DNA from: a virus
Lineage: Duplodnaviria > Caudoviricetes
Reading direction: 5' to 3' (one strand)
IMG/VR virus record: IMGVR_UViG_3300015606_001334
Span: 1 to 64,000 of that record
DNA: 64,000 bases
Part shown: piece after piece, positions 47,679 to 63,727 of the stretch
How positions within the stretch are numbered: the first letter of the stretch is position 1
Layout: each line of letters begins with the position of its first letter
Made by a program: the position numbers and the translations under genes
Notes under the pieces: model-generated
Told to the model about the DNA's origin: nothing
Database searches by the model: none
The model's input: only the letters and a program-made list of their open reading frames with translations

Positions 47679-47684
47679 CAGTTC

Positions 47685-49292
47685 TTAGAACTGACTGATC
47701 AGCTGCGGAGTTGCAGAGTCGAAACCAACAACGTCCAACATACCAGCATCCTTCGGATCGGCGATGGAGAAGTTGGTAACGGAAGTGCCGCAAACGATCA
47801 ACTTACCCTTACCGTACTGATCACGATATTGCTTCAGAGCCTGAGTCGGATGGATACGACCAGCCCAAGTTTCGTTGTCAGTGTAAACGCAGAACTTGTC
47901 CACGTTCATCTTGTGCTTCATCGCATACAACATCGGTTGGGCGCAGTCAGTGCCGCCCCAGTTGAAGTTGCGCATGGTGCTCAAGACGGTGTCAAGACGC
48001 ATGTTCGGAGAGATCTTCAGTTCAGACATGGTAGTGTCGAAACCACCGATCCAGTAGTTGGATTCAACCTTTGCAGTTGCAAGCGCCATAACAGCAGCAG
48101 CTTCAGCAGCAGTAAGGTTGTTGATACCCATACAACGAGCACCAAACATGGAGCCAGAGCAGTCGATGCCAAGCAGGTAGTTCTCGCCGGACGGTTCGAT
48201 GTTCTTGAAGGAAGCGTAGAAGGCATCGTTCAGAGCGTCAACCACACGCTGAGAGACATTCCAAGTCATGGAGCCCTTGTCACCGCGACCTTGTTGGTAG
48301 GTCTTCATTGCGGACAACAGAGTGATCGGGTGAACACGACCATTCTTCAGAGCTTCAGCATCGCTCAAGCGGGCAACAGCCAGCTTTTCGCCGTCAGACA
48401 GACCACGGATCACGCCATTTGCAGACATACGACCCAAGTTGCGGATCAGCGCAGAGATACCCATGGAAGGGAGCAGAGCTTCCCAAACCTTGGAATCGGC
48501 GAGCACCTGAGTAGGCAACATTTCCCAAGTCAAACCGTAGTCGCGAACTGCCTTGACAGCGTTGGCAACGGTCGGGTTCTTGTGGAGTTCTTCGAAAACA
48601 CCGAAGAGTTGCGGCAACTTAGCGTTGTCGAGATGCTTGCGATCATTGGTCATCCAATGGAACATCGCGTTGTGGGATTCAGTGGTCGGCTTGACGTGAG
48701 CCAAACGAAGAACGTCACGATGAGACCAGCCGTTACGTTGCTGGTACTTCAGCAACTGCATAGCGAGCTTGTCTTCTTGGCGTGCGTACCACTTGGCAAC
48801 ACCACGCTTTGCGTAGCCACGCCACTTACCGAACTTGTTGTAAGCCTCCATGAAGGAGAACAAGTGGGTACCGATACGGCAGACCTTGCCAAGGTTGGCG
48901 AAAGCATGTTCCGCAACTTCCTTGTTATCAGAAGCAGCAGCCAGAGCCAACACGAAGATGGCAGGATCGTTCTTGAAAGCGCGACCTTGGTCGGAGATTT
49001 CAACAACACGGTCAATTGCACGCTTACCGTTTTCCTTGATGCAGGCGATAACGTTCTTTGCGTTATCCAGAGTTACGTTCTTTTCAGAAGCGTAGTAGTG
49101 GCCGCCTTCAGAGCCCATGATGATGAAGCGGTCGAACTGACCCCACTTATCCATCACGAAGGAGAAGCCTCCTGCGTTGTTCTTAGCCATGTCAGCTTCG
49201 CGACCAGGGATCGCCTTGCTCTGAGCAGTAGCCTTTGGGTTGAGTTCGCCATCGAGGATGTCGGAATAACGAGCGGTTGCATTCTTAGCCAT
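47685..49292 (-). CDS. Ro60/Rsr TROVE-vWA RNA-binding protein
   Basis: NNAGGFSF, RFII.GSEGG.YY, KYQQRNGWSHRDVLRLAH, ALIRNLGRM, RVHP, DCSGSM, YTDNETW, MLDVVGFD. Confidence 0.95.
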   Translation of the reverse strand: MAKNATARYSDILDGELNPKATAQSKAIPGREADMAKNNAGGFSFVMDKWGQFDRFIIMGSEGGHYYASEKNVTLDNAKNVIACIKENGKRAIDRVVEISDQGRAFKNDPAIFVLALAAASDNKEVAEHAFANLGKVCRIGTHLFSFMEAYNKFGKWRGYAKRGVAKWYARQEDKLAMQLLKYQQRNGWSHRDVLRLAHVKPTTESHNAMFHWMTNDRKHLDNAKLPQLFGVFEELHKNPTVANAVKAVRDYGLTWEMLPTQVLADSKVWEALLPSMGISALIRNLGRMSANGVIRGLSDGEKLAVARLSDAEALKNGRVHPITLLSAMKTYQQGRGDKGSMTWNVSQRVVDALNDAFYASFKNIEPSGENYLLGIDCSGSMFGARCMGINNLTAAEAAAVMALATAKVESNYWIGGFDTTMSELKISPNMRLDTVLSTMRNFNWGGTDCAQPMLYAMKHKMNVDKFCVYTDNETWAGRIHPTQALKQYRDQYGKGKLIVCGTSVTNFSIADPKDAGMLDVVGFDSATPQLISQF

Positions 49293-49356
49293 GTTGTTTC
49301 TCCTTGTGAAAGTGTGTACGGATTAAGTTGATTGTTGCTTAATCAAAATTAGCTAA

Positions 49357-49396
49357 CAGAATTTGAATTGTAATCAAATTCTGATAAGTTGTAAAC
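49357..49396 (-). promoter_or_regulatory. early promoter of Ro60 with -10 in the loop of a perfect 10-bp inverted repeat
   Basis: GTTTACA...CAGAATTTGA-TTACAAT-TCAAATTCTG. Confidence 0.75.
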
Positions 49397-49414
49397 TGCT
49401 GTGGGTGAAATTAT

Positions 49415-49873
49415 TTATTTGATCGGAACGTAAACTATACCAGGTTCCAGAATCAGTGAGCCAGGTGTAAGTCCAGAGACGTCAAGTTTATCAGGATTGT
49501 CGTACTTAATGGTGTTATCGAAACGATAGAACGTCTCAAAACCATTGTTGAAGATGACTTTTACCTGCTCATGGATGTCTTTACCACCGAATTTACCAAC
49601 GACCTTTTGGCCTTCTGTGATAATTTCTTTGATATCGAAACCTTGTTCATCTTCGAGTTGCTTGGGAGTAATTTCGGCTTTTGGCTGAATAAAACCTGAA
49701 GAGGTTCCAACTACATACGCTATACCACCAACTACGGCAAGAAACGCCTGGTAGATAATTGCTATAACGATTGCGTTGAGATAGCTTGTATCAACATTAT
49801 TGATTTCATTTGAAAAAGCTATTGCCCCAAAAATGCACACGCTACTTAAGCCCAGCCTTGTTGCTATTTTCAT
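49415..49873 (-). CDS. membrane protein
   Basis: Two N-terminal TM segments. Confidence 0.55.
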   Translation of the reverse strand: MKIATRLGLSSVCIFGAIAFSNEINNVDTSYLNAIVIAIIYQAFLAVVGGIAYVVGTSSGFIQPKAEITPKQLEDEQGFDIKEIITEGQKVVGKFGGKDIHEQVKVIFNNGFETFYRFDNTIKYDNPDKLDVSGLTPGSLILEPGIVYVPIK

Positions 49874-49973
49874 TCTTCTTATCCCGAGGTATTGTTATTA
49901 TTCGAAAGCAAACCGCTACCGAATGATGTATTATAACACAATCCAGTAGCGGTGTATACTGAGTGAATGCAGA

Positions 49974-50540
49974 TTAATTCAGGTGCAATCTTGAATTTTC
50001 AGGAACAAACTGCATCAAGAAGTCCATTTGATCAGCCAGGATGTTTCGGTTCATCAAGATCAAATGTTCTGCTTTAGTTGGGACGTAAGGAACGTAGAGC
50101 AATTGCATGTGAGCTTGCTCAGGAGTTCTGCAGTCTTTATGTTGATTACACTTTTGGCAGGCCGCAACAACGTTCATCCATAAGTCCTTACCACCCTGGG
50201 CCTTAGGCTTGATGTGATCGCGAGTCAGGTCGTCTGCATGGAAGTGCTTTCCACAATACGCACAGATCTGACGGTCACGTCTGAACAAAGCTTTGTTGGT
50301 CAAGGTAGGTGTCTTATGATTGAATTTAGACTTTCCATTTTCGCTACGAACTGCGATAATTGAAGGAGTAACAATTTCAGACACTTCACCTGTTAGACGA
50401 GATACCCCACCGTGGAAGGTGAAATAGTTTTCACCCAGTGACCATGCAACCTGACCTTTCGCTTGTTTAGTAACAGCTTCTTGCCAAGTAACCCACTCTT
50501 GTGGAGTGCCATATATGTCTAGAGATAGAATTTGTGCCAT
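49974..50540 (-). CDS. HNH endonuclease
   Basis: LFRRD..CAYCG, TRDHIKP..QGG...W.NVVAAC..CN..K. Confidence 0.88.
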   Translation of the reverse strand: MAQILSLDIYGTPQEWVTWQEAVTKQAKGQVAWSLGENYFTFHGGVSRLTGEVSEIVTPSIIAVRSENGKSKFNHKTPTLTNKALFRRDRQICAYCGKHFHADDLTRDHIKPKAQGGKDLWMNVVAACQKCNQHKDCRTPEQAHMQLLYVPYVPTKAEHLILMNRNILADQMDFLMQFVPENSRLHLN

Positions 50541-50580
50541 GTTTTTACCTTTTTCAATTTGAATCTACATTTAGATTGTC

Positions 50581-51009
50581 CTATGAGAGTTTTTGTTTTT
50601 GCAAAGTCTCCTCAAGCTTAGTAACAAAGGCTTGATGATCTTTGCGCCCGAATTTAACGAATTCTTCAGCAGTCATCCAGACCGTATAAGCTGTCTCATA
50701 GCAAGGAGCGACGAACTTTGAAACATCCTCAATCTCACCTGCGAAAACGGATAGCTTATAGTTCTTGTATGAACTTCTGCCTACATCAAAGCAGTTTTTC
50801 AAGTTTGAGCGAATCAAACCAAGTTCTTCTTCTGCTTCTCTCAAAGCAGTTTCTTGATCAGTTTCGCCAGGGTCTTGACCACCCTTGGAAATCATTGGCA
50901 GCGAGCCGCCATAGGCAGCATCTGATGAGACCATCATCAGGTATTTAAACTTTCCGATCGTCTCATTAAAAATATACGGGATAAATCCCGCTTTTACTTT
51001 CTTTGCCAT
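50581..51009 (-). CDS. Nudix hydrolase
   Basis: KGGQDPGETDQETALREAEEELGL Nudix box. Confidence 0.88.
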   Translation of the reverse strand: MAKKVKAGFIPYIFNETIGKFKYLMMVSSDAAYGGSLPMISKGGQDPGETDQETALREAEEELGLIRSNLKNCFDVGRSSYKNYKLSVFAGEIEDVSKFVAPCYETAYTVWMTAEEFVKFGRKDHQAFVTKLEETLQKQKLS

Positions 51010-51275
51010 GATTTCCTCTACTTGTTCATTTTGTCATCTCCAATGTCAAGATCCATATCGATTTCAGAATACGCGAAAAGATCCGGGCGATAGGAAGAAA
51101 TACCCAACAGGTACTTCACCCAATCGATCAAATAGCGGAAGTATCCGATCCAACCAAGGTTGGTCACTTCCCACCAATCGATCTTTACCTTTTCGATAAA
51201 TCGATCTAGCATCTTTTTACCTTTGATGTTTGACAAATGCAATTATATCAAACTTCAGAAAAAGAGTAAATCTTT

Positions 51276-51833
51276 TTATGCAGTCACAGGTTTTGCTGGG
51301 TTAATTAATTGTTGTGATTGTTGTGATAGGTGAGCTTTTAACTTGCCACGAATCTGTTCAAAGAAGCTTCGCATCTTATTGATGTCACGAAGAAGAGTCT
51401 CTCTCGACTGATCATCTTCGTTGTCTTCTTCTAGATTCTTCAGAAGTTGCTCATACTGCTCGATGAATGAAGGAGCAGCCTCGCCAATCTCTTTAAGTCT
51501 GTCATCCGCAATAACCATGCGATGTTCATCTTCACCGTAAACTTTTTCTTGACCGGCTTCAGCGATGTCGTTCAACAGACGTAGGAGTTGTTTAGGCTTC
51601 GCGATATCAGCAAAGGATCCGCGTAGGTCTGACTTACCAAGCACACGGAAACCTGCTAGCGACTTTGCTAGCTCGGAGACGTCGATGTCTTGTTGCTTGA
51701 TAGTGCGATGACGATTGTTAAGCTTCGCATAAATTTGACCAAGAAATTTATCCGCGCTCTCTACGATCATCGCAGAAGTTTGAATTTCTCGTTCTTCTGC
51801 AAGAACTTGAAGGTCTTTGATCAATTGTAGCAT
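51276..51833 (-). CDS. late hypothetical protein
   Basis: TATAAATA at 51867-51874; N-terminal VLAE. Confidence 0.6.
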   Translation of the reverse strand: MLQLIKDLQVLAEEREIQTSAMIVESADKFLGQIYAKLNNRHRTIKQQDIDVSELAKSLAGFRVLGKSDLRGSFADIAKPKQLLRLLNDIAEAGQEKVYGEDEHRMVIADDRLKEIGEAAPSFIEQYEQLLKNLEEDNEDDQSRETLLRDINKMRSFFEQIRGKLKAHLSQQSQQLINPAKPVTA

Positions 51834-51865
51834 GTTAACGGCCTAAAAGAGGATTGTACATAATC

Positions 51866-52420
51866 CTATTTATAGTCTGTTATTCCGAAAACTTCAAATC
51901 CGTCAAAAAACTGACGCCAACCTATGCCATTATAGAAGTCAACAAGAATCGCTCGTTTCTGATCCAGATGTGGATGATTGATAATTGAGATGTCATCATC
52001 CAACATGAGATAGCCCGAAATCTCTCCTCGATGGTTAGACATCCAATACGAGATCTCGTCTGCTCGGCTCCATTGCTTGTGCTTTACTGTTTTCCAGTCT
52101 TCGTGGATCGCAGTGTATGCTCCTTCTAGACCGTTGACGGAGAGAATCTCTTGGAGTTCTTCCATTGTAGCATACTTTGTCCAATTAGTGGACAGCACAA
52201 ACTTGGCTTCGGCCTTTTCGAGCCAACGGTTAAGCATGGATATCGCGACTGGATCAAATTTGATTTGCTTCTTCAGCGCGTGATTATCTTGCCAAGAGCA
52301 TTCCTCATCAACTAGGATTTGTCTATTAGGTTCTACCAAATGCATTCGCGCAGGCAAAAGGGGACCGTCAAAATCAATGAAGATTACGTTGGTCCCATCA
52401 AGAGAAAGCCTATACATCAT
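51866..52420 (-). CDS. HAD phosphatase (RNA-repair 'Swiss army knife' type)
   Basis: IFIDFDGPL, VLSTNW, R.DEI..W, YLMLDDD; likely start 52420. Confidence 0.8.
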   Translation of the reverse strand: MMYRLSLDGTNVIFIDFDGPLLPARMHLVEPNRQILVDEECSWQDNHALKKQIKFDPVAISMLNRWLEKAEAKFVLSTNWTKYATMEELQEILSVNGLEGAYTAIHEDWKTVKHKQWSRADEISYWMSNHRGEISGYLMLDDDISIINHPHLDQKRAILVDFYNGIGWRQFFDGFEVFGITDYK

Positions 52421-52844
52421 CTCGTCCGATTGTAATGTGGAAAGGGTAATTTTCCCGCAGCCCCAATTCTCGACGAATTTCAACCATTTCTTTTGTTGGC
52501 TTTACCATCAAAACCCAAAATTGCCATTGTTTCTTCAGTTCGACTTCGTGAGAAAGCTGGATGATTTTTCCATCAAAACGCTTCTCGAGATCCTTCAACT
52601 TGTTGACGTCTTTAACTTTGTCCTTGTCATTTACTACTGTTACATGGGCACCCCATGCGGGCAAAGAAACTTTGATGCCGTATTTTCGCCACAGCCACCA
52701 AGAATAGTATTCAACGATACCGTTGTCAACCTTTAGAATTACGCCACGGTCAAATGATCGATGTGACTTTTTCAGACCAGGACGGACTGGACTAAAGATA
52801 AATTTTCCATTACAACGAGCTTCCTGACTGATCATCGTATTCAA
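52410..52844 (-). CDS. 2H phosphoesterase-like protein
   Basis: Two HxT motifs: AHVTV and FHITIG. Confidence 0.65.
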   Translation of the reverse strand: MNTMISQEARCNGKFIFSPVRPGLKKSHRSFDRGVILKVDNGIVEYYSWWLWRKYGIKVSLPAWGAHVTVVNDKDKVKDVNKLKDLEKRFDGKIIQLSHEVELKKQWQFWVLMVKPTKEMVEIRRELGLRENYPFHITIGRDDV

Positions 52845-53154
52845 ATCCTAATTGTTCGCAGAAATCAACAATCGTACTCAGCTTTTCGGCTGAAATGATG
52901 TAAAATTCTGGGTTTTCATCGACAACTAAATTGTATAACGGATCTGTCGCCGTGTAAACATGAGAATCAACTAGGCATTCCATTAAAAACGGATCAGTGA
53001 GTTTGAGAATCCGCAGCTTAAGCTTTTCCTCAAACACGATCGCCGCGTAGTACTTATCTTCCTCCATAAACATGGAAGTAAAGTCAGCTGTTTCCTGAAG
53101 ACGCACTGATAGGTGCGGAATTTTTCCGCAAAAGAAAGGGACAGATTTTTCCAT
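52810..53154 (-). CDS. hypothetical protein
   Basis: 114 aa, TAATG overlap with smpB. Confidence 0.5.
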   Translation of the reverse strand: MEKSVPFFCGKIPHLSVRLQETADFTSMFMEEDKYYAAIVFEEKLKLRILKLTDPFLMECLVDSHVYTATDPLYNLVVDENPEFYIISAEKLSTIVDFCEQLGFEYDDQSGSSL

Positions 53155-53606
53155 TAATGACCGGTGAGTTTAACGGTTCTTCTTATTTCGCGATCGACCT
53201 CGCGGTTCTTTTTGTCTTCACGCTTGTCGTAAAGCTTCTTACCCTTAGCTAGGGCAATCTCAAGCTTAACACGACGGTTCTTATAGTACATCTTCACTGG
53301 TACCAAAGTGAGACCAGAGATTTGAGTCTTACCAATCAGTTTGTCGATTTGGTGCTTATGAAGAAGCAGCTTACGAGTACGCGTTGGATCAAGAGACGTA
53401 AATTTGGTGTTGTTGCCGATAGGGGTAATGTTGCAACCAATCAGGAAAACTTCCTCATTGAGGACACGAACATAGGCTTCATTCAAAGAAACCTTCCCTG
53501 CAAGAATCCCCTTTACTTCCCATCCCTCAAGGACGAGACCACACTCGTAAAAGTCTTGAAGGAAGTACTCATGAGAGGCCTTCTTGTTATTCGCAATCGT
53601 CTTCAT
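53154..53606 (-). CDS. smpB: SsrA-binding protein SmpB
   Basis: IANNKKASHEY, GLVL.GWEVK, DP.RTRKLLLHK, TLVP, AKGKK.YDKR tail. Confidence 0.95.
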   Translation of the reverse strand: MKTIANNKKASHEYFLQDFYECGLVLEGWEVKGILAGKVSLNEAYVRVLNEEVFLIGCNITPIGNNTKFTSLDPTRTRKLLLHKHQIDKLIGKTQISGLTLVPVKMYYKNRRVKLEIALAKGKKLYDKREDKKNREVDREIRRTVKLTGH

Positions 53607-53811: not shown

Positions 53812-53814
53812 CCT

Positions 53815-54315
53815 TTAGTGATTACTAATTCGCATGTTGGGAACATTATCAAAAATCCCACCATGTTCCATAGTACAGTAAAAATTACCGTCATTGTCAG
53901 AATATTCGAATGTGTAAACATCCATTCCGGCAAATTCGGCCTTGATCTTTTCAGCCATCTTGGCACGGTGGGCAGATCTTGCTTTTTCGTAAGCATCCCA
54001 ATCGTAGTCGTAACCCTTGCCGTCAGCAGCACGCTTACGGAAGTTATCGAAATTTGGAGAACCAGGGAGATGACCACCAAGAGCTCCAGAGATAGCCTCA
54101 TCGTTGTTTGGCGTCTGGGCGCGCATATCGCGGGTTACCTGATCGGCGATTTCTTTTGTGGTAAACGTACCGATCCAGTCGTAGGCCGTGATATTTTCCT
54201 GACCTGCGAAGAGATAACTCTGCACGTTATCACTTGAAATCTCCATGTCCTTCGGGAATGCTACGATGAAGGAAGAGCTGGAGCTGTTACTAACGAATCC
54301 ACCACGAATTTTCAT
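53815..54315 (-). CDS. phage protein with MKIRxGFVSNSSSSSF N-terminus
   Basis: MKIRGGFVSNSSSSSFI...ISNH. Confidence 0.7.
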   Translation of the reverse strand: MKIRGGFVSNSSSSSFIVAFPKDMEISSDNVQSYLFAGQENITAYDWIGTFTTKEIADQVTRDMRAQTPNNDEAISGALGGHLPGSPNFDNFRKRAADGKGYDYDWDAYEKARSAHRAKMAEKIKAEFAGMDVYTFEYSDNDGNFYCTMEHGGIFDNVPNMRISNH

Positions 54316-54554: not shown

Positions 54555-54612
54555 ATTTTTCTTTTAAATTGATTTTGTTATTTTATACTACGGTACTGCG
54601 AAAGTAAACTGC

Positions 54613-55362
54613 TTATTCGTACTTTTCAGACTTCGTATTCAAAATTCCAAACGGAGTAACTACCGTCTTACCATCCTCTGAGATGGTGTACTCAACACCA
54701 GCACTCTTAACTGGAGGGAACACTACGAACAGCTTCACCAGGTAGTTCAGAGTTTCGAGGCTGGCGGGCTTACGATAGAGAAATTGGCGAACGTCAAAGT
54801 TGGAGAGAAGGTCCGCAGCTTGAGACTTAGTGTAGACTTCAACATTTTGCAGAAGACCAAGATATTGGGCAATCTGGAAGCAAAGAAACTTGTAGACTTC
54901 AGTTGCTTCTTCTTTACCAAAATCGTCAATCTTGGTAAAGTCGATTTCGAGAATAGCTTTGAGCTTATCGTAAACATTCTCGGCTCGAAGCGCTTCCTTC
55001 ACCATTGCTCGATACTGAGTGCGAGAACAATGGGAAAGAATCCCACGAATGACACGAACCCATTTCAAGCAGATGTCTCGTTCGACTTTGGCGATAATTG
55101 GGTTTGGGAACTTTTGATCATGAAGATGGTAGGTTGCAAGGATGCTGTTGTTTACTTCATCCACTGTACCTTTGTAGACCTCGGTAACCTTACCGTCTTT
55201 TACCACGATCAAATTGCCGTTTACGCCAAGCGCATGAGACCACTCATCACACTTTTTCTTGGCTTCGTTGAAGGTACCAAGTTCATCAACCAAAAAGTAA
55301 ACGTCAACATCCAAGGAATCTTCTGATCCATGGATAAGATAAGGTACAGGACAATCAACCAT
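54613..55362 (-). CDS. putative nucleotidyltransferase-fold protein
   Basis: IHGSEDSLDVDVYFL (GS..S.DxD), KG..DE.NNS. Confidence 0.55.
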   Translation of the reverse strand: MVDCPVPYLIHGSEDSLDVDVYFLVDELGTFNEAKKKCDEWSHALGVNGNLIVVKDGKVTEVYKGTVDEVNNSILATYHLHDQKFPNPIIAKVERDICLKWVRVIRGILSHCSRTQYRAMVKEALRAENVYDKLKAILEIDFTKIDDFGKEEATEVYKFLCFQIAQYLGLLQNVEVYTKSQAADLLSNFDVRQFLYRKPASLETLNYLVKLFVVFPPVKSAGVEYTISEDGKTVVTPFGILNTKSEKYE

Positions 55363-55371
55363 CGTTTTCTC

Positions 55372-55411
55372 CTTTTTCGAAATTATAACATCAAGATTCG
55401 AAAAAGTAAAT
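55372..55411 (-). promoter_or_regulatory. early promoter inside a 10-bp inverted repeat
   Basis: TTTACT...TGTTATAAT; arms CTTTTTCGAA / TTCGAAAAAG, the downstream arm running into the AAGGAG SD. Confidence 0.75.
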
Positions 55412-56208: not shown

Positions 56209-56724
56209 TTACTTGGCCAACCCGTACTGGTTCAGGCGTTGCATCAACGCGAATTCCCAAGGAGTAATGTCCTTGATGATATCGGTCATAGCCCAACCGT
56301 CAACACCGCTCCTGACGTCGCGAATGTGAATTTCGCATTTGTCTGCAACATGTGAATGATCGCGACACGAACGAATACGTGCAGCAGTATCGTAGATCTT
56401 CGGAGGAAGAATCATACCGACGTAGGTCAACGCACCATTCAGAGAAACTTCATCTTCGTGGAACTTGACGAACGGGTACGGATTTTCTTCACAGTACAGG
56501 AATGCATACAGCTCAGCCAAATCAGCTGAGTTTCCGCCGTTCAGCAGGACCATGGTCTTGTGATTTTCAGCCCAGTCGTTGTACATGTTCTGACAAGGCG
56601 CGATATCGAAATGACCTTGCTCATGAATGTTGTACTTCACATGCAGATCAACTGCAGCATGACCAGCTTGCAGCCCTTGCTGCAGCGACGAAAGGTAGTA
56701 GTTACCAAAGCCGTAAAAACGCAT
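56209..56724 (-). CDS. divergent Pth2-fold (peptidyl-tRNA hydrolase II-like) protein
   Basis: LS..QQGLQAGHA, W....KTMVLL, F.E......ALT.VG. Confidence 0.55.
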   Translation of the reverse strand: MRFYGFGNYYLSSLQQGLQAGHAAVDLHVKYNIHEQGHFDIAPCQNMYNDWAENHKTMVLLNGGNSADLAELYAFLYCEENPYPFVKFHEDEVSLNGALTYVGMILPPKIYDTAARIRSCRDHSHVADKCEIHIRDVRSGVDGWAMTDIIKDITPWEFALMQRLNQYGLAK

Positions 56725-56826: not shown

Positions 56827-57246
56827 TTATTTTGATTCGCTCTTGGTAGAAAAGAGCAGCTTCAGCTTGTGAAGCAAAGTCTGAACCAAACTGGGATTCG
56901 TGTCCGGTTCCGAGGTTACGGCGGATGAGGCGATATACAGTTGACATTTTTCTTCCCACTTGTCGAGTTTCTTGCGAGCGATTGCCATCAGCATTTCTTC
57001 AGAGATGTCGATGCCATTCTTTTCAGCATGGATGTAGATCATATCGACCAAGCAGAGAATTGCGTCTATCGATTCGCCGATGATGCCGTCAGGGCCTTGC
57101 TGCTTATAAGACTTGCCGCCACAGGAGATAGAGATTTCCTGAGCTAGTTCGCCGACTTCTTCCATTACGTGTGCGAGAATGGTGTATTCGTCGCGATCTA
57201 CAGGAATGCGATCACTAACATCCAGGATTTGATTTACAAGGCTCAT
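56827..57246 (-). CDS. MazG-like NTP pyrophosphatase
   Basis: MEEVGELAQE...IGESID...D, KLDKW. Confidence 0.75.
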   Translation of the reverse strand: MSLVNQILDVSDRIPVDRDEYTILAHVMEEVGELAQEISISCGGKSYKQQGPDGIIGESIDAILCLVDMIYIHAEKNGIDISEEMLMAIARKKLDKWEEKCQLYIASSAVTSEPDTNPSLVQTLLHKLKLLFSTKSESK

Positions 57247-57267
57247 ATCACAATGACAGAAAGATAA

Positions 57268-57305
57268 CAAAGAGAATTATATCATAAAATTCCCTTTGCG
57301 TAAAC
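57268..57305 (-). promoter_or_regulatory. early promoter inside an 11-bp inverted repeat
   Basis: GTTTACG...TGATATAAT; arms CAAAGGGAATT / AATTCTCTTTG (one G.U). Confidence 0.7.
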
Positions 57306-57307
57306 TC

Positions 57308-57715
57308 TTATTTGAACTGAGCAGATGAAGATTTGCGTTGATCGTAATGGTGATCACAGCATGGTTCGCCTTGGTTGAACTTCACACGAACCGCGCGATC
57401 ATCCCAAAGCTGAACCATGCCGTAGTCTTTGACGTTGGTTACTTCAAGACGAACACCAATATGCTTTTCGACCCATTCTTCAACGTAGATGATATGGTCT
57501 TGAACACACGCACGAGCAGTAAAGATCTTGACAGTTTTTCCTTCGGCAAGCCATTGCTTGATTCGTTCTACCATTTCTGGGATAGGTTCGCCAATATGAT
57601 CGGGACCCTTGAAACCGGAATATTGAGCTAGAGTTCCATCTAGATCTACACCGATCCAGGCAGACTTTAGACTTTTTAGCGAAGAATCGCCAGGTAGAAG
57701 AATGATACTTGACAT
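57308..57715 (-). CDS. HAD phosphatase (PNK 3'-phosphatase-like)
   Basis: WIGVDLDGTLA, IGEP, IFTAR, K, LWDDRA. Confidence 0.8.
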   Translation of the reverse strand: MSSIILLPGDSSLKSLKSAWIGVDLDGTLAQYSGFKGPDHIGEPIPEMVERIKQWLAEGKTVKIFTARACVQDHIIYVEEWVEKHIGVRLEVTNVKDYGMVQLWDDRAVRVKFNQGEPCCDHHYDQRKSSSAQFK

Positions 57716-57744
57716 GATAAATACCTTTTTAAGGAGTTAATGAG

Positions 57745-58122: not shown

Positions 58123-58413
58123 GTCCCAGAACCAAACCTCACGGTTGAAATCGTCGAAACGATCATCTTCGCAAATTTCCTCATAGTCAAGGAACGCGTC
58201 ATCACTATGGCCAGTAAACTCAGCAAATAGTTTTGCGATATGCATTTGGAATTTGGTTTTGTCAGTGAAGACTAGGATTGCTTCGACTTCATCGTAGTCG
58301 ATACGATCTGAGGAAGGATTATCAAGAATCAGTCCGTAAGATGTTAGATTGCCAGCGCTTTTTGGAGGTGGTGGCATCTCAGTGAGAATTTTGGAGAGTG
58401 ATTCTAGTTTCAT
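58111..58413 (-). CDS. acidic hypothetical protein
   Basis: SD begins directly after the tRNA-Gly CCA; MKLESLSKILTE. Confidence 0.6.
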   Translation of the reverse strand: MKLESLSKILTEMPPPPKSAGNLTSYGLILDNPSSDRIDYDEVEAILVFTDKTKFQMHIAKLFAEFTGHSDDAFLDYEEICEDDRFDDFNREVWFWDLFR

Positions 58414-58426
58414 GATGAACTCCTTT

Positions 58427-58502
58427 TGGAGCGGGCGAGGAGATTCGAACTCCCGACATCTTCCTTGGCAAGGAAGTGCTCTACCAGCTGAGCTACGCCC
58501 GC
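58427..58502 (-). tRNA. tRNA-Gly(GCC)
   Basis: 76 nt cloverleaf GCGGGCG...CTTCC-TTGCCAA-GGAAG...TTCGAAT...CGCCCGC-T-CCA. Confidence 0.95.
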
Positions 58503-58508
58503 ATTAAA

Positions 58509-58886
58509 TTAAGATCCAACGGATCTTTTTAGTCTAGCGAAGTACTTCTTAATATCGCCTTCTTCATCGAAGCTGTGGATTGGCATTCCACCATATTGAC
58601 AGTCTATTTTTCCATTCTTAGGAATGTCGATATAGACTTCAATTACTACCCACTGCTCTTCTTCATCGTCAAGCCATGCATATTGATACCCATGGGATTT
58701 TGATTTCTCATAGAAACCAGCATAAGCAAAATAGCCTAGCTTTTCAGCTTGAAGGATTGAATGAACTTCAGTTCCTTCGTCATACCCAGAATTTTTTAGA
58801 AGCTCGGCAATGTCAGAAGCTGTCAACTTAGTTGCGTTGAAGTCTTGAACTCTGCCTAATGATTCAAAAAGCTCTCTTAATTCCAT
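58509..58886 (-). CDS. hypothetical protein between the tRNAs
   Basis: SD directly after the tRNA-Thr CCA; MELRELFES. Confidence 0.6.
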   Translation of the reverse strand: MELRELFESLGRVQDFNATKLTASDIAELLKNSGYDEGTEVHSILQAEKLGYFAYAGFYEKSKSHGYQYAWLDDEEEQWVVIEVYIDIPKNGKIDCQYGGMPIHSFDEEGDIKKYFARLKRSVGS

Positions 58887-58896
58887 GGTTTCCTTT

Positions 58897-58972
58897 TGGT
58901 GCTACTGATCGGGATTGAACCGATGACCTCTTCCTTACCAAGAAAGTGCTCTACCAACTGAGCTACAGCAGC
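58897..58972 (-). tRNA. tRNA-Thr(GGT)
   Basis: 76 nt cloverleaf GCTGCTG...CTTTC-TTGGTAA-GGAAG...TTCAATC...CAGTAGC-A-CCA. Confidence 0.95.
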
Positions 58973-58996
58973 ATACCCTCACTGTAATAGTAAGGG

Positions 58997-59004
58997 TATT
59001 TATA
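58997..59004 (-). promoter_or_regulatory. late promoter driving the tRNA-ORF-tRNA-ORF unit
   Basis: TATAAATA 24 nt upstream of tRNA-Thr. Confidence 0.7.
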
Positions 59005-59021
59005 CAAAACCGACGTATTTT

Positions 59022-59516
59022 TTATCGGCGCTTTGCACTTACTGCCGAAGGCTTAAAGGAAGACGAGGAAGAAGGCGCACTGAAGCTGGTCTTCGGAGCA
59101 GTAACGGTTTGCATCGACTTGGCCGCCACAGGGTTAAACGTCTGCTTTGGTGCAGGAGCCGGGGCAGCTTGGGCGACTGGAGCTTGGATTACCGGACGAG
59201 CAGGAGCAGGAGCCGAAACTGTCGTAGTAGGACGGTACACGTTGGTAGTGGTGGTTGCCGGCTTGTCTGCGTTCGCCTTGCCTGCAAGGTAAGCTGCGGT
59301 ACCAATGGCTGCTGCGCCAACCAACGCGGTGCCAGTGCCGATACCATCATGCTGTTGAACAACTACCGGAGCTTGCTGCGGGTATTGTCCTTGCGGATAC
59401 TGGGAGTACTGAGGAGCAGGTTGCTGAACGTACTGGGTTTGCGGAGCTGGGTGATTGTCACAAGCAGACAGAGTAGCAGCGAGGGCCAGAGCAACCAAGA
59501 GAGACTTTTTCATCAT
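59022..59516 (-). CDS. low-complexity lipoprotein
   Basis: Lipobox LALAATLSAC; P/Q/A/S-rich. Confidence 0.65.
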   Translation of the reverse strand: MMKKSLLVALALAATLSACDNHPAPQTQYVQQPAPQYSQYPQGQYPQQAPVVVQQHDGIGTGTALVGAAAIGTAAYLAGKANADKPATTTTNVYRPTTTVSAPAPARPVIQAPVAQAAPAPAPKQTFNPVAAKSMQTVTAPKTSFSAPSSSSSFKPSAVSAKRR

Positions 59517-59704
59517 TTTTCCTTTGAGTTAAACATTTGGTTAAAAAGGGTTTCAACAGCTTGTTCGGCTTCTGTAAAGCCAGGAAGTGACCGATTACGA
59601 ATCCACATATTGTATTTCAGCCACTTCACATTCTGTTTCTGCGAGATGTCCTTACGAAGAACAGGAACATCAGCCATTTCCAGAAATTTTTCGAGGGTTG
59701 TCAT
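59513..59704 (-). CDS. hypothetical protein
   Basis: 63 aa, ATGA overlaps at both ends. Confidence 0.55.
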   Translation of the reverse strand: MTTLEKFLEMADVPVLRKDISQKQNVKWLKYNMWIRNRSLPGFTEAEQAVETLFNQMFNSKEK

Positions 59705-60066
59705 TGTGCACCTTCTTGGATCATTTCGATTTCGCGCTGGAGACGCTCAATTTGTTCGCGTCGCTCAGCAATTTCTCGAGCCTTCTTCTGATCCTTGAAG
59801 GTGCTACGCAACAGAACTGTGTGCTCAGAGAGAATGAATTTGCCGACAACGCAGGTATCAACTTTATCAAAATTGCTATACGGAAAGTTGAAGGAATCTT
59901 CTGCAGTTTTGATTGCCTTGGCTTCAGTCATTACTTCAGCTTGCCGCGTAGAAGTTGCAATGTACGGATAACCACCAGAATGGGAGTCTTCTGCGTAATA
60001 ACCCAGAAAATTACCCTCTTTGTCGTAGTATTCGATACTGAATTCGCGACCTTGACCATCTGACAT
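59701..60066 (-). CDS. early hypothetical protein
   Basis: GGAGG SD; D..SGGYPY motif; coiled-coil C-terminus. Confidence 0.6.
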   Translation of the reverse strand: MSDGQGREFSIEYYDKEGNFLGYYAEDSHSGGYPYIATSTRQAEVMTEAKAIKTAEDSFNFPYSNFDKVDTCVVGKFILSEHTVLLRSTFKDQKKAREIAERREQIERLQREIEMIQEGAQ

Positions 60067-60080
60067 CTTGTAACCTCCAT

Positions 60081-60128
60081 CGAGAGTAGTTGAAAAGAAT
60101 TATATCAACTACTCTCGAAAAAGTAAAC
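60081..60128 (-). promoter_or_regulatory. early promoter with -10 in the loop of a perfect 13-bp inverted repeat
   Basis: GTTTACT...CGAGAGTAGTTGA-TATAATTCTTT-TCAACTACTCTCG. Confidence 0.8.
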
Positions 60129-60382
60129 TAGTTTTGCAACGTTTGACGATACTCAGCAACCGTCAAAAAGAGCGATTCATCTCTTGGCCGTTGGTATCCC
60201 AAATCCCTTTCCCAATCACTATGATATTTGGAATGATGCCAAATGTACCAGCAATTCACATTGCCAGGTTTATCTTCAGAATAATACCACTTAGCCCATC
60301 TCATGAAAGTAGGACGTTGACAATAGTCCAAAGGATTGGCAAGCTGCACGTGAGTACAGCCCCAAGGAATTTCAATAGTCAT
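60128..60382 (-). CDS. hypothetical protein
   Basis: 84 aa, IPWGCTH motif. Confidence 0.45.
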   Translation of the reverse strand: MTIEIPWGCTHVQLANPLDYCQRPTFMRWAKWYYSEDKPGNVNCWYIWHHSKYHSDWERDLGYQRPRDESLFLTVAEYRQTLQN

Positions 60383-60767
60383 CTGGAAGTGTCACCGCAT
60401 ATCGACCATTCATATAGGTATCACCCCGCTTTTTCCCTTCTACCCCGATCAAGCTAGTATTCTCAACTGCCATATTCACTGAATCGTAGCAGATGACACC
60501 CTTCACTTTTATACCTTGTCGCTTTGCGATAAAAGTGAAATGATCAGGGAACATTGGGTTATCTTGATACCCTCGGTAAGTGCAAATCATACTAGCTTCT
60601 TGTACGACAGCACCACCTCTAACAAATTTGACATCTGTCCAGCCAGATGCTGTCAGTAGGGTTAGGGCTTTTGACTGTGCTTTTGCTCTTTCCTCGCCGG
60701 AAAAATCGCATGCTGACATCAAAATCAGCAAAAGCCCTACGAAGATGTAATGACTAAACTTTTTCAT
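60372..60767 (-). CDS. lipoprotein
   Basis: MKKFSH...LLILMSAC lipobox. Confidence 0.55.
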   Translation of the reverse strand: MKKFSHYIFVGLLLILMSACDFSGEERAKAQSKALTLLTASGWTDVKFVRGGAVVQEASMICTYRGYQDNPMFPDHFTFIAKRQGIKVKGVICYDSVNMAVENTSLIGVEGKKRGDTYMNGRYAVTLPDDY

Positions 60768-61366
60768 TCTGCATATCCTTCCCATTCATCAGTGTAAACC
60801 TTTTTCAACCTATCCAAATATTCAAGGGTCTTAATCTTGACCATGAAGTCTTCACCTTTGCAGATAACTCCTTCATAGACTGGATATTTCCCTTCACGAA
60901 CATCCTGAATGAACTGAGTGTTCAAATTTCCTTCATAGACAACTTCAGCTCCCCAATCTTGATGACTGAATAGCTTTGCGAAAGGACGAGGAGGAATGAA
61001 TCCTTGTTTGAAAACAAAAACATCAAGCAATCTCAACTCTTTAGGTTCGTCATGATCATGAGAACCTGCAAAGCTAGATTTACCGAAGAACTCCGTGAAA
61101 GCTGTAATTCTTTCGGGTTTTCTTCCACAGAAATGTTTGGTTGCGTCAACTACCGCAGGACCAACAACGTCCATGAAAGGTTCGATTGCTTGATTGTAAA
61201 GCGGAGTATTTGCGTCAAATAGCTGACGACGAGTTCCGTATTTTACCCAACCTCTTTTGGGATTCCATTCCCAACGGAGATTTGAGCCGTCATACTTGTA
61301 GAACGCGATGCATTTTTTACCGAGAGGAGCGTCCTTGCTCCCAATGATAGATGGGTACTGTAACAT
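60764..61366 (-). CDS. minimal ATP-dependent RNA ligase-like adenylyltransferase
   Basis: YP.I, motif I KYDGSN, FTEFFG, LLDV, YEGVICK, VKIKT. Confidence 0.7.
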   Translation of the reverse strand: MLQYPSIIGSKDAPLGKKCIAFYKYDGSNLRWEWNPKRGWVKYGTRRQLFDANTPLYNQAIEPFMDVVGPAVVDATKHFCGRKPERITAFTEFFGKSSFAGSHDHDEPKELRLLDVFVFKQGFIPPRPFAKLFSHQDWGAEVVYEGNLNTQFIQDVREGKYPVYEGVICKGEDFMVKIKTLEYLDRLKKVYTDEWEGYAE

Positions 61367-61420
61367 AAAAAGCCTTATTTGAAATTGTAGAAATGGTTAC
61401 TTGATTGGCTTTACAGACCT

Positions 61421-61780
61421 TCATGATACAGTACCTCCTTCATCCGGTAGTTTTGGTGGATCAGTACGAATGCACTCATCCAAATTTATTTCGTGATTGA
61501 TACCTGGGAAAACCCATTTCATGAAATCGCAACCATATTTGATTGCGTCTTCCATTTTATCAAATTGTTGTCGCCCAAAAGGACGACCTGATCGAACGCT
61601 CGGCAGATCAATCATCAATTCGTAGTACGTAGAAAAGAAAAATTTTCTACGGCGTACGGTAAAGGCTAAGACATAGACGTTAAGTGTGCAATATGCCACA
61701 ATCTCAGGGATAAAACCTCCTCGGTCAGCAGGCATATTCTTGCCTTCTTCATAGAGATTTAATATCGCCAAACGGTCCAT
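61421..61780 (-). CDS. hypothetical protein
   Basis: 119 aa. Confidence 0.5.
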   Translation of the reverse strand: MDRLAILNLYEEGKNMPADRGGFIPEIVAYCTLNVYVLAFTVRRRKFFFSTYYELMIDLPSVRSGRPFGRQQFDKMEDAIKYGCDFMKWVFPGINHEINLDECIRTDPPKLPDEGGTVS

Positions 61781-61792
61781 GTCTTATCCTAT

Positions 61793-61978
61793 TTACTTAT
61801 GTCGATTCTTGATCTTCTTCATCACTTCTTCGCCGATGCGCTGGGTAAGTTGTCGCTCGGTCATATGAGCACCTACACCAGCATCCATGATCGGTTCCAA
61901 AGGAATTGAGATTGTCATCGTCAGTTCAGGGGCAAACGTTGTCGGGTTTACCTCAAGTGTTGGATCAGAGATCCGCAT
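61793..61978 (-). CDS. hypothetical protein
   Basis: 61 aa, TAATG overlap. Confidence 0.45.
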   Translation of the reverse strand: MRISDPTLEVNPTTFAPELTMTISIPLEPIMDAGVGAHMTERQLTQRIGEEVMKKIKNRHK

Positions 61979-62559
61979 TACAGTTCCAGCAAAGCGTAAC
62001 GCTTGCCAGAGATTTCCACGATGCCGTAGCTTTCGCCAGTCTTCGGATGTTCACTGAAACCTTGGAACTTCAGGTTCGGCACGAACTTGGCAGATTGGTC
62101 GAGAGCACGTTTGATCGTGTTCTTGGTCGGGACATCCCAACCTTTGGGTTTATTTACAACTACCGGCTGAGCAGTCAAACGCTGAGCATCAGACATCGCA
62201 GCAGTAGTCGCTGGCTTCGGATCGGGAGTCTTCGTCAAAGCAGACTTTTCAGCCTTACGAGCAGCCCGGAACTTTTCGCTGGTGTTGAAGTACTGGTCGT
62301 ACCAAACGGCGAACGGCATTTCTTCAGTATTGCCGACACCAGATTCAGGAATCATGACAACGACAGTGTCACCATACAACTTGAACAGAGACAGAGGTTT
62401 ACGCTCCATCTTCTCATGATGCTTCGTCTGCAAAGCCAAATGGCTCGCGAACGCGGAAAGAGACGACCAAATTTTGCCATTGGCTTTCCAACCAACAGTC
62501 TCGCCGCCAGTGGAATACAATTGGACACCAGTTCCATTTTTACGGATTCGATACAGCAT
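61978..62559 (-). CDS. hypothetical protein
   Basis: Likely start MLYRIRK at 62559; LYSTGG...W..NGKIW motif. Confidence 0.55.
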   Translation of the reverse strand: MLYRIRKNGTGVQLYSTGGETVGWKANGKIWSSLSAFASHLALQTKHHEKMERKPLSLFKLYGDTVVVMIPESGVGNTEEMPFAVWYDQYFNTSEKFRAARKAEKSALTKTPDPKPATTAAMSDAQRLTAQPVVVNKPKGWDVPTKNTIKRALDQSAKFVPNLKFQGFSEHPKTGESYGIVEISGKRYALLEL

Positions 62560-62788
62560 TTTGTTTCCTTTCTTTTCGTTCACGTCGAATTTCTTTTGCG
62601 GTTTCAGTTGCTGCCACTTCACCGTATCCGTGCCATCTGCACGAATCTTGAATTTCTTCAGGCGAAAAGTCTTCGTAAGACTCGCAATCTCCTGATGCAA
62701 GATTCGGACACAGATAACCACAATTACCTGCAATCCCATAAGAATCGCAAATACTCATACCAACGGGGTAATGATCAGCTAGGCTCAT
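62540..62788 (-). CDS. Cys-rich small protein
   Basis: C...G..G.CG..CP.L..G.C; directly after a promoter. Confidence 0.5.
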   Translation of the reverse strand: MSLADHYPVGMSICDSYGIAGNCGYLCPNLASGDCESYEDFSPEEIQDSCRWHGYGEVAATETAKEIRRERKERKQNAVSNP

Positions 62789-62790
62789 GT

Positions 62791-62824
62791 AAGAATTATA
62801 ATCAGTAATTCTTGTATTGTAAAC
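62791..62824 (-). promoter_or_regulatory. early promoter inside an 8-bp inverted repeat
   Basis: GTTTACA...TATAAT; arms AAGAATTA / TAATTCTT. Confidence 0.65.
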
Positions 62825-63329
62825 TGCCCTTTAGTTTTTTCTTCATTTCCAGCAAACCACCTTCAAAGCTATGTGTGAAATACACGTTATGGCTTTTGAA
62901 CGACTTATGCGCCAACGTCACCTTAACGTTTTGAGCTCTCGTGTATTTCGGATCGCAAGCAACAACTATCTGCTTTGATGACATTGGATTCCCTTGCAAA
63001 AGACCCAATTCGTACAAAGAGATTGGCGAAATCGTATCTGCTGCCAAGTGCATAAAGATGAAATGACATTTCGTGATTGAGTTCAATTCCCAATTGATTT
63101 GCTCAGCAATCAGAGCTTCATCGGGTGCAACTACTCTCCGTGGATTGTAGATACTAATGTCGAGGTCACGAAGTCGCCGAATAGCTTTTGCTTGCCAGTC
63201 TGGTGAATTGCCCATCTCAATCGTTCCAGCCAAGAAAATTGAAATGTCATCTTCTGAACCAATGTTTTCTGATTCAGGGGTAAACACCTTGGCTGGAAAT
63301 TTCGACTCAAGCAAAGCGTTGTATTTCAT
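62802..63329 (-). CDS. nucleoside 2-deoxyribosyltransferase-like protein
   Basis: IFLAGTI.MG..PDWQ, YNPRR, EQINWE, SPISLYELG. Confidence 0.8.
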   Translation of the reverse strand: MKYNALLESKFPAKVFTPESENIGSEDDISIFLAGTIEMGNSPDWQAKAIRRLRDLDISIYNPRRVVAPDEALIAEQINWELNSITKCHFIFMHLAADTISPISLYELGLLQGNPMSSKQIVVACDPKYTRAQNVKVTLAHKSFKSHNVYFTHSFEGGLLEMKKKLKGSLQYKNY

Positions 63330-63727
63330 AGCAGCTTCAATTCTTTCGTGAATGGGTCGATTCTTTCAGGATAGTCCGGCCCGATACCAATGCAGGTGAG
63401 AGTAGGAACTCCACCAAACTCGGTCAAACCGCTATCAATGATCTTTGACACTGGAATTCCAAAAGCCAAGACATCTTCGTAAAGGGCTTCAAGAGCCGCC
63501 TCAGAATCGATACCAACGCAGATCTTCTTGAATGGACCATTCAGCCAAGCGTCAAGAGCGGAACCGACTGGAATGGTCAGCTTACGACGCTCATAGAGCT
63601 CGGTATATTCGGACTCCATCATGTTGAGAATGACGGCCATCGAAGCATGAGATGCTTGGGCTGCCATTTTACCTTTGCGCATGTTCAGATCGGTGCGCAT
63701 CACGATTACTTGTTTTGGTTGGCTCAT
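63326..63727 (-). CDS. pth2: peptidyl-tRNA hydrolase Pth2
   Basis: KQVIVMRTDLNMRKGKMAAQASHA, KKICV, IIDSGLTEF, TCIGIGP, T..LKLL. Confidence 0.93.
   Translation of the reverse strand: MSQPKQVIVMRTDLNMRKGKMAAQASHASMAVILNMMESEYTELYERRKLTIPVGSALDAWLNGPFKKICVGIDSEAALEALYEDVLAFGIPVSKIIDSGLTEFGGVPTLTCIGIGPDYPERIDPFTKELKLL

Follow-up and report, generated by a model that had tools for sequence, protein, structure and literature searches.

Does a single phage carry the means to free stalled ribosomes and also to repair the RNAs on which they stalled? This question is raised by a 16-kb block of genes, positions 47,685 to 63,727, within 64,000 nucleotides of viral DNA (IMG/VR record IMGVR_UViG_3300015606_001334, positions 1 to 64,000; hereafter the window). 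A preliminary description of this DNA had read the block as one phage-encoded system of translation rescue and RNA repair, built from Ro60, SmpB, two Pth2-fold proteins, ligases and phosphatases and backed by ClpX, ClpP and the RNA ligase Rnl1 from elsewhere in the window. Every item of this parts list is present at its reported position, as judged by Pfam, PHROGs, structure prediction and motifs, and the three distant genes are confirmed as well (ClpX, 38380-39612; ClpP, 688-1293; Rnl1, 3914-5041; all on the minus strand). One gene had been overlooked, a Pol-beta-type nucleotidyltransferase (NTase) at 54613-55362.

Many bacterial defences cut tRNA or mRNA and thereby stall translation, and the countermeasures of large phages have mostly been inferred from gene lists. 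The list compiled here is one of the fullest for a single phage: SmpB, tmRNA, ClpXP, two Pth2-fold proteins, Ro60, two RNA ligases, end-healing enzymes and, in the whole genome, 45 tRNA genes (ARAGORN). It is an unusually complete, clade-conserved instance of an RNA-repair and ribosome-rescue complement which has already been described for jumbo phages. On balance we hold it probable that the block belongs to an auxiliary arm with a conserved neighbourhood, made up of small, separately promoted gene sets which jointly keep translation running in the infected cell. The apparent co-transcription of SmpB with RNA-end-healing enzymes is a specific and testable linkage.

The window covers the initial 64 kb of one virus genome of 359,550 bp (42.9% G+C; rated complete by CheckV). 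When the 16-kb stretch was compared by megablast with 50,697 phage records, no match was obtained, and after this result at the DNA level relatives were traced via proteins. The T4-type topoisomerase II is 52% identical to its counterpart in the Ralstonia jumbo phage RsoM2USA (343.8 kb), the nearest isolate, which is collinear with the phage in this part of the genome. Other window genes code for GyrA/B-like topoisomerase subunits, an XPD-like helicase, thymidylate synthase, DHFR, guanylate kinase, TelA/TerC proteins and a bactofilin; because of the topoisomerase, helicase, nucleotide, TelA/TerC and bactofilin genes the window is assigned, from sequence, to that arm of a jumbo myophage which carries replication, nucleotide and auxiliary genes. 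The phage is T4-like, and its host is probably a betaproteobacterium. All genes of the block are on the minus strand, and coordinates are window positions unless prefixed C1. The open reading frames (ORFs) discussed are conserved at the protein level in related phage contigs and are therefore regarded as real genes.

SmpB, tmRNA and ClpXP

The SmpB gene (53154-53606) codes for a tmRNA-binding ribosome-rescue protein of 150 aa. It matches Pfam SmpB over its full length (PF01668, residues 4-146, E 6.9e-55, 185.3 bits against a cut-off of 27) and E. coli SmpB in the PDB with 1.7e-39. The basic C-terminal tail, GKKLYDKREDKK, contains the D-K-R motif, which trans-translation requires; the tail Trp, W147 in E. 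coli and also present in the nearest betaproteobacterial SmpBs, is replaced by Val. The phage SmpBs form a clade of about 30 sequence clusters with 57-81% identity, located on contigs of up to 220 kb, and all of them (P0121-P0150) carry V, I, A or S at the position of the tail Trp and keep the DKR motif. The closest cellular homologues are betaproteobacterial, with 53-58% identity (Thauera, Azoarcus, Caballeronia, Nitrosomonas). The lineage looks as if it had been captured from Betaproteobacteria, from a host related to that of RsoM2USA. Matches of SmpB in catalogued phages by tblastn were, for most of the matches listed, located at the record ends of temperate phages or prophages or on short fragments; they were read as host genes and were not used.

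A search of the rest of the genome for a tmRNA, as proposed in the preliminary description, was positive. ARAGORN identifies a permuted, i.e., two-piece tmRNA at C1:156013-156450 on the minus strand, about 100 kb from SmpB and outside the window. It scores 94.6 bits as tmRNA_permuted in Rfam (gathering threshold, GA, 47) and 55 bits as alpha_tmRNA (GA 50; RF04321/RF01849). The acceptor strands GGGGUCG and CGACUCC-ACCA yield G3:U70 and A73, an alanine-type acceptor. According to ARAGORN the tag reads ANDESYRVAA and is followed by a stop; it starts with AND and ends with VAA, an ending which resembles that of the Caulobacter type. Because this RNA is encoded in the same genome, SmpB can be predicted to have a phage-encoded partner.

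ClpX, an unfoldase of 410 aa (TIGR00382, 533 bits against a cut-off of 371), possesses an N-terminal C4 zinc finger (CxxC...CxxC), a Walker A motif, the GYVG pore loop and an MGF ClpP-docking loop; the RKH loop of E. coli reads RKT. In the ClpP protease subunit (Pfam CLP_protease, 9.5e-36, 121 bits) the catalytic triad is readable as Ser (ASMG), His (AHQ) and Asp (TDRW). All four components of the bacterial SmpB-SsrA/ClpXP system of E. coli and Caulobacter have phage counterparts, yet here the genes are dispersed, with ClpP at 0.7, ClpX at 38, SmpB at 53 and the tmRNA at 156 kb.

SmpB in an apparent operon with RNA-end-healing enzymes

In the tightest unit of the block, from position 55362 down to 51866, start and stop codons overlap or abut in the order NTase, u80, phrog_7397, u74b, SmpB, u114, 2H and HAD-SAK, after which u185 follows. 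High-scoring promoter-like elements of the form TTTAC(A/T)-N17-TATAAT, often with an extended TG, are found between genes on the coding strand at 62795-62823, 60099-60127, 57276-57304, 55382-55410, 51242-51270, 49930-49958 and 49367-49395. These sites constitute a reading and not a proof, since the total of all promoter-like sites, 28, is no higher than the 27.5 of shuffled sequence. On that reading the 16 kb would comprise about seven transcription units, and SmpB would be co-transcribed with the NTase and two end-healing enzymes in one apparent operon.

The NTase, first gene of the unit which contains SmpB, is assigned to the Pol-beta superfamily by motif and predicted fold. Its family has invariant G12, S13, D18 and D20, i.e., a GS...DxD signature. 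The AlphaFold2 (AF2) model has a mean predicted local distance difference test score (pLDDT) of 94.8, and its best folds are HalB, ANT/AadA, MNT and the CCA-adding enzyme, all of them weak matches (E 2e-3 to 1e-2; template modelling score, TM, 0.3-0.44). Neither the NTase nor its unfused homologues match any Pfam family at E<=0.01, hence they are not part of Pfam RlaP. Homologues exist in Bacillus phage G (gp208) and in the Lak phages, with 44% identity to a protein of Lak-B7. Metagenomic relatives (P0413-P0491) are often fused at the C-terminus to a PNKP-type HAD phosphatase (HAD_PNKP, PF25109). The layout of these fusions is like that of T4 Pnkp, with an NTase-fold domain in the place of the kinase.

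The two healing enzymes are located downstream of SmpB. The 2H phosphoesterase (52410-52844) is of the 'Swiss Army Knife' (SAK) type and a candidate 2',3'-cyclic phosphodiesterase. Both H-x-T-x motifs are readable (HVTV, HITI), it matches phrog_12204 with 2.9e-21, and its score for Pfam 2H-SAK (PF22547), 24.3 bits, is under the cut-off of 27. It shares 40% identity with an RsoM2USA gene which adjoins the TROVE gene of that phage. The HAD_SAK_2 protein (PF18143; 51866-52483; 2e-17, 64.3 bits against a cut-off of 27.5), a phosphatase of the SAK RNA-repair family and a candidate 3'/2'-phosphatase, carries a DFDG motif; its gene stays beside the 2H gene in the three related contigs L013, L017 and L019.

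The remaining members of the unit are less easily characterised. The phrog_7397 protein (53815-54315; 3.3e-17), two genes upstream of SmpB, is phage-specific: its homologues are found in KP15/RB16-type T4-like phages, and its atlas clusters are all viral and unnamed. The 114-aa ORF u114 (52810-53154), the start of which overlaps the SmpB stop by 1 nt, is weakly conserved (35-40% identity in relatives) and has no family match. The 185-aa helical protein u185 (51276-51833) is conserved in the clade (61-72% identity) and has no significant family.

RNA ligases and a small phosphatase

Two RNA ligases are encoded in the window. Rnl1 is of the T4 type (Pfam RNA_lig_T4_1, 2.2e-28; T4_Rnl1_C, 7e-5). 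The second one, at 60764-61366, is a stand-alone RNA-ligase nucleotidyltransferase domain of 200 aa, similar to Rnl2/PF09414, which we call mini-ligase. The motifs KYDGSN, TEFFG, EGVICKG and KIKT are readable, and the residues of motifs I, III, IV and V do not vary among 40 sequences (K24, D26, G27, E92, E165, G166, K177, K179). The sequence from the window has no Pfam match of its own and matches phrog_548, 'RNA ligase', with 1e-3; 27 of the 40 homologues match Pfam RNA_ligase (PF09414), the best one with 4.6e-14. Like most of its family the mini-ligase ends at about 200 aa, right after motif V, and has no T4 Rnl2-type C-terminal domain. No other gene of the block is as strongly conserved; identity in relatives is 79-93.5%. 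Homologues of 200 aa are numerous in metagenomes; among catalogued phages they are restricted to 20 records, 15 of which are Lak megaphages, four are 'uncultured phage' genomes of 485-642 kb and one is XacN1.

The small HAD protein at 57308-57715 is similar to PNKP phosphatases. It has no Pfam match, and its PHROG matches are to phosphoheptose-isomerase and polynucleotide-kinase families (phrog_1238, 4e-10; phrog_415 'polynucleotide kinase', 2.4e-8). A DLDGT motif is present, and identity in relatives is 58-91%.

Two Pth2-fold proteins

The first gene of the block codes for a canonical peptidyl-tRNA hydrolase of 133 aa (Pth2; 63326-63727; Pfam PTH2, 3.8e-29, 101.7 bits against a cut-off of 23), with 60-85% identity to the proteins of L013 and L019. 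At its stop codon there is an overlap of 4 nt (63326-63329) with the start of a nucleoside 2-deoxyribosyltransferase-like gene (62802-63329; Pfam Nuc_deoxyri_tr2, 2.3e-19), as if both were translationally coupled. The same overlap recurs in L019 (2125-2128), the Pth2 of which is 60% identical. The deoxyribosyltransferase-like protein probably belongs to nucleotide metabolism and not to RNA repair.

The second protein (56209-56724; phrog_3668, 'hydrolase') is divergent. It has no Pfam PTH2 match at E<=0.01 and no PDB profile match; one homologue matches PF01981. Its AF2 model (pLDDT 86.5) was compared with the PDB by Foldseek: the 11 best targets are all Pth2/Bit1, with probability 1.0 and target TM 0.57-0.68, followed by a clean gap in score. 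In place of the lysine motif KGK of canonical Pth2 the family has an invariant SS-QQ-Q-H. According to the model this protein is a Pth2-fold paralogue, an assignment which concerns the fold and not the activity. In Vibrio phage 496E54-1 (L016, 4986-5480) the phrog_3668 gene is positioned between a CCA-adding tRNA nucleotidyltransferase gene, with which it overlaps, and a second nucleotidyltransferase gene 2 nt away, and in Rheinheimera phages it adjoins a tRNA nucleotidyltransferase gene. Because its neighbours are CCA-adding nucleotidyltransferase genes, this suggests that the family has a role at the tRNA end distinct from that of classical Pth2.

Ro60 and its possible RNA partners

Ro60, an RNA-binding ring protein with TROVE and vWA domains (47685-49292; TROVE 4.6e-40, 138.6 bits; vWA_Ro60 1.6e-56, 191.2 bits), closes the block and is 77-93% identical in relatives. 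Upstream there is an element TTTACA-N17-TACAAT (49395-49367), conserved in relatives; the conserved spacer contains only a 7-bp hairpin behind this promoter-like element. The stop codon is followed by a 15-bp hairpin (47679-47646), and because DHFR is the next gene there is no room for a Y RNA downstream.

The search for Y RNAs which the preliminary description had recommended found none flanking Ro60 within 46-64 kb at E<=5. What it yielded is a sub-threshold YrlA match in a distant tRNA array, a tRNA-like element at C1:147967-148051 with 29.1 bits against a GA of 69. Near this element are two tRNA genes in which 66-nt inserts interrupt the anticodon-stem region (C1:147173-147298 and 147357-147483; L006, 360-485 and 544-670). 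It is possible that these tRNAs and the YrlA-like element, about 100 kb from the Ro60 gene, are RNA partners of Ro60.

Conservation of the neighbourhood

The three related contigs share the order Pth2, ligase, HAD, MazG, Pth2-like, NTase, phrog_7397, SmpB, 2H, HAD-SAK, HNH and Ro60. SmpB identity to the window is 77% in L013, 63% in L017 and 57% in L019. Nudix, some small ORFs and one or both tRNAs vary among the contigs. The gene neighbourhood is kept in L013, L017 and L019; in RsoM2USA and the Sinorhizobium phage Phosso its genes are scattered or lacking, apart from four which RsoM2USA retains at the syntenic place.

RsoM2USA contains a TROVE gene according to the list in its paper, which Pfam confirms; tblastn with Ro60 of the window against 15-55 kb of that genome gave no match. 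Its Pth2 gene is at 103.7 kb. A homologous permuted tmRNA (331200-332500, 96.7 bits) is present, and the RsoM2USA paper does not mention a tmRNA. By eye its tag is ANDSRYAVAA, close to ANDESYRVAA; ARAGORN miscalls this tag. Phosso carries Ro60, three PTH2 genes and a permuted tmRNA (349596-350198, 113 bits), and no SmpB. Because both phages possess the tmRNA without SmpB, the tmRNA is the older trait in this group of phages and SmpB a later addition.

Parts of the block reappear in unrelated huge phages. A stretch of 22 kb in Lak-B7 contains SmpB, the NTase homologue and the mini-ligase, with 18 tRNA genes next to them; the same genome has a standard tmRNA at another place. In the 642-kb uncultured phage LR756502 a distance of 10 kb separates SmpB from the mini-ligase, and their surroundings contain 19 tRNAs, two genes similar to aminoacyl-tRNA synthetases (aaRS) and another RNA_ligase. 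The 30-kb region concerned (LR756502.1, 363183-393773; L024) codes for a TrpRS/TyrRS-type protein of 239 aa, a HisRS-type protein of 210 aa, a thioredoxin, SmpB, two RNA ligases and 19 tRNAs; no tmRNA exceeded the threshold. The recurrences of SmpB, mini-ligase and NTase, and of the Pth2-like gene with CCA-adding enzymes, favour a shared role in tRNA and translation maintenance over pure coincidence; they come from few genomes and are not a statistic.

Does the block act as one system?

In the explanation we favour, ribosomes would stall where host nucleases have cut mRNAs or tRNAs, or at truncated messages which arise from phage-induced decay of host mRNA. SmpB and tmRNA would release the stalled ribosome and tag the nascent peptide, ClpXP would clear the tagged product, and Pth2-type enzymes would free peptidyl-tRNA. 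The 2H and HAD enzymes might then trim 2',3'-cyclic or 3'-phosphate ends, the NTase might refill lost nucleotides, and Rnl1 or the mini-ligase could reseal the tRNA. Ro60 would deal with misfolded RNA. That all of this serves as a counter-defence against anticodon nucleases we can only infer.

Several observations weigh against a joint function. The total of promoter-like sites does not exceed that of shuffled sequence. About 15 ORFs without assigned function lie scattered among the RNA genes, as do several genes of the nucleotide pool. Distances of 9-100 kb separate the block from ClpX, ClpP, Rnl1 and the tmRNA. No Y RNA was found near Ro60 in an Rfam scan of 46-64 kb at E<=5. The syntenic region of RsoM2USA retains only HNH, the Pth2-like gene, 2H and, immediately adjoining 2H, a divergent TROVE gene, and RsoM2USA lacks SmpB although the tmRNA is present. 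Because so few block genes, and no SmpB, are kept there, the conserved order within the clade may reflect general collinearity. Finally, the chain has gaps. RtcB (PF01139) has no match in the whole genome of 359.5 kb, and a 5'-hydroxyl polynucleotide kinase, which would serve the ATP-dependent ligases, is not recognisable in the window nor clear in the genome; the only candidate, a P-loop kinase domain of AAA_33/Zeta-like type, is encoded in a 387-aa ORF at C1:90226-91389. The claim that the phage carries nearly every step of recovery was therefore overstated.

The notion of one system fared in a mixed way. It is supported by an order of genes which is conserved across the phage clade; about seven promoter-like sites, the interleaved nucleotide-pool, HNH and functionally unassigned genes, and dispersal or loss outside the clade speak against it. 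The strongest competitor accordingly holds that there is no integrated system. The genes would have been acquired independently into a permissive accessory arm, adjacency would reflect shared timing or tolerated insertion, ClpXP would serve general proteolysis and Ro60 its own RNA surveillance. This agrees with a block split by several promoter-like sites, with the DHFR, MazG, Nudix, deoxyribosyltransferase-like and HNH genes and many ORFs in between, with the lack of Nudix, several small ORFs and tRNA-Gly in L017 and L019, and with the scattering of the same functions over hundreds of kb in RsoM2USA and Phosso. It does not easily account for the start/stop overlaps which run from the NTase through SmpB to 2H and HAD, for an order which is kept at 57% SmpB identity while the flanks differ, or for the close recurrence of SmpB, mini-ligase and NTase in the 550-640-kb Lak and LR756502 genomes. 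We consider independent acquisition unlikely, yet as the alternative to be taken most seriously.

A bolder version of joint function is more doubtful still. The phages of this clade might possess a self-contained trans-translation module, consisting of a lineage-specific SmpB without the tail Trp, the two-piece tmRNA and ClpXP, which would be transcriptionally coupled to NTase, 2H and HAD-SAK and to the mini-ligase. If this were true, a single coordinated phage pathway would rescue, clean and reseal tRNA or mRNA cut on the ribosome, and host defences would be unable to switch this pathway off.

It is rather improbable that the genes mainly serve the takeover of the host and not counter-defence. 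Here, phage-driven decay of host mRNA would generate non-stop messages, SmpB, tmRNA, ClpXP and Pth2 would recycle ribosomes and tRNAs to the benefit of phage messages, and the ligases and healing enzymes would process phage tRNAs, tmRNA precursors and interrupted tRNAs. The 45 tRNAs, a two-piece tmRNA in need of processing and the tRNA genes with 66-nt inserts around 147 kb fit such a role, as do the presence of the same genes within tRNA arrays and beside aaRS-like genes in other huge phages and the link of the Pth2-like family to CCA-adding enzymes. Against this, 2H, HAD-SAK and Rnl1 belong to the classic enzymes which heal and seal tRNA after cleavage by nucleases (Iyer et al., 2021; PMC7824862). 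Moreover, no phage RNase for host mRNA decay was identified in the analysis.

Least credible is a specialised or interfering SmpB, which would pair only with the phage tmRNA or sequester that of the host and thus reprogram host trans-translation instead of boosting it: the substitution of the tail Trp throughout the phage clade, its retention in E. coli and in the nearest betaproteobacterial homologues, the alpha-type score of the tmRNA next to betaproteobacterial affinities of SmpB, and related phages with a tmRNA and no SmpB would suit it, but the core fold is preserved together with the DKR motif of the tail, the tag has the AA ending of functional degrons, and SmpBs of some other phyla lack the tail Trp as well. 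We regard this reading as very improbable.

Relation to known systems

The RNA-repair and ribosome-rescue complement of jumbo phages has been compiled by Iyer, Anantharaman, Krishnan, Burroughs and Aravind (Iyer et al., 2021; PMC7824862, section 3.4.9; see also Burroughs and Aravind, 2016) and comprises tRNAs, Rnl1, Rnl2 and RtcB ligases, PNK, HAD-SAK, 2H, TROVE, an RlaP NTase, CCA enzyme, PTH2 and ClpP. The parts are nearly the same as here and so is the proposed logic; the preliminary description had singled out the near-complete chain as the notable part, an idea which was thus already published. SmpB and tmRNA occur 0 times in that paper (PMC7824862). What differs here is SmpB in an apparent operon with NTase, 2H and HAD-SAK, the second, divergent Pth2-fold protein, and a 200-aa ligase without a C-terminal domain.

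In huge phages tmRNA and SmpB have been reported (Al-Shayeb et al., 2020; PMC7162821), and in work on two-piece tmRNAs of marine phages 53 of 133 unique phage tmRNAs are of this type (Buchholz et al., 2022; PMC9004378). Lak-B7 has SmpB and a tmRNA, whereas here SmpB, a permuted tmRNA, ClpX and ClpP are all encoded in one genome.

Phage T4 heals and seals tRNA cut by the anticodon nuclease PrrC with Pnkp and Rnl1 (Iyer et al., 2021; PMC7824862). Our phage likewise encodes an orthologue of Rnl1 as well as a PNKP-like HAD phosphatase; unlike in T4 no Pnkp-type kinase is fused to or near the phosphatase, and healing is apparently split among 2H, HAD-SAK and the small HAD protein. The bacterial RNA-repair operon of Rsr (Ro60), YrlA Y RNA and RtcB, represented by rsr-yrlBA-rtcBA in Salmonella (Chen et al., 2014; PMC4201824), is another point of reference: the phage has a Ro60 orthologue in an RNA-repair neighbourhood, but its genome has no RtcB and its Ro60 no adjacent Y RNA.

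Two points appear to be unreported, the linkage of SmpB with RNA-end healing at operon level and the repeated occurrence of SmpB, mini-ligase and NTase near tRNA arrays in unrelated huge phages. In addition, three poorly known families are flagged: stand-alone RNA ligases of 200 aa, Pth2-fold proteins which lack the lysine motif, and Pol-beta NTases, often fused to a PNKP phosphatase. The picture of jumbo-phage biology is filled in by these data and not changed.

Other genes of the block and the genome

The MazG-like NTP pyrophosphatase (56827-57270; phrog_1247, 7.7e-24), the Nudix hydrolase (50581-51009; Pfam NUDIX, 3.1e-8; absent from L017 and L019), the deoxyribosyltransferase-like protein and the adjoining DHFR look like enzymes of the nucleotide pool. 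A free-standing HNH endonuclease (49974-50540; Pfam HNH_5, 1.7e-16) is kept in relatives and is 45% identical to an RsoM2USA gene. MazG, Nudix, the deoxyribosyltransferase-like protein and HNH are probably bystanders. Two tRNA genes detected by ARAGORN lie in the block, tRNA-Thr (GGU; 58897-58972; Rfam tRNA 69.3 bits), which is kept in L013 and L017, and tRNA-Gly (GCC; 58427-58502; 70.5 bits), which is kept in L013 only.

The conserved 253-aa protein u253 (61978-62739; 38-81% identity in relatives) is without a Pfam, PHROG or PDB match. Comparisons with Pfam, PHROGs and clusters gave no function for phrog_7397, u253, u185, u114, u80 and u74b. Sequence searches of the PDB returned nothing for the Pth2-like gene, the mini-ligase, phrog_7397 and u253, and in PDB profile searches with the family alignments A1 (Pth2-like), A3 and A4 nothing was accepted; a match of A3 to RSP5 (E 0.02) was rejected as chance.

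A bactofilin-like gene is positioned directly downstream of DHFR and Ro60 (46704-47099 and 47101-47793), and in L017, too, the pair of DHFR and bactofilin follows Ro60. In the early region of the phage, near ClpX (29727-34986), a TerC/DUF475 membrane protein and two TelA-like proteins of the tellurite-resistance type are encoded. At C1:119950-120023 there is a tRNA with the anticodon CUA, labelled 'Pyl' by ARAGORN, a probable amber suppressor; one has been reported for RsoM2USA as well.

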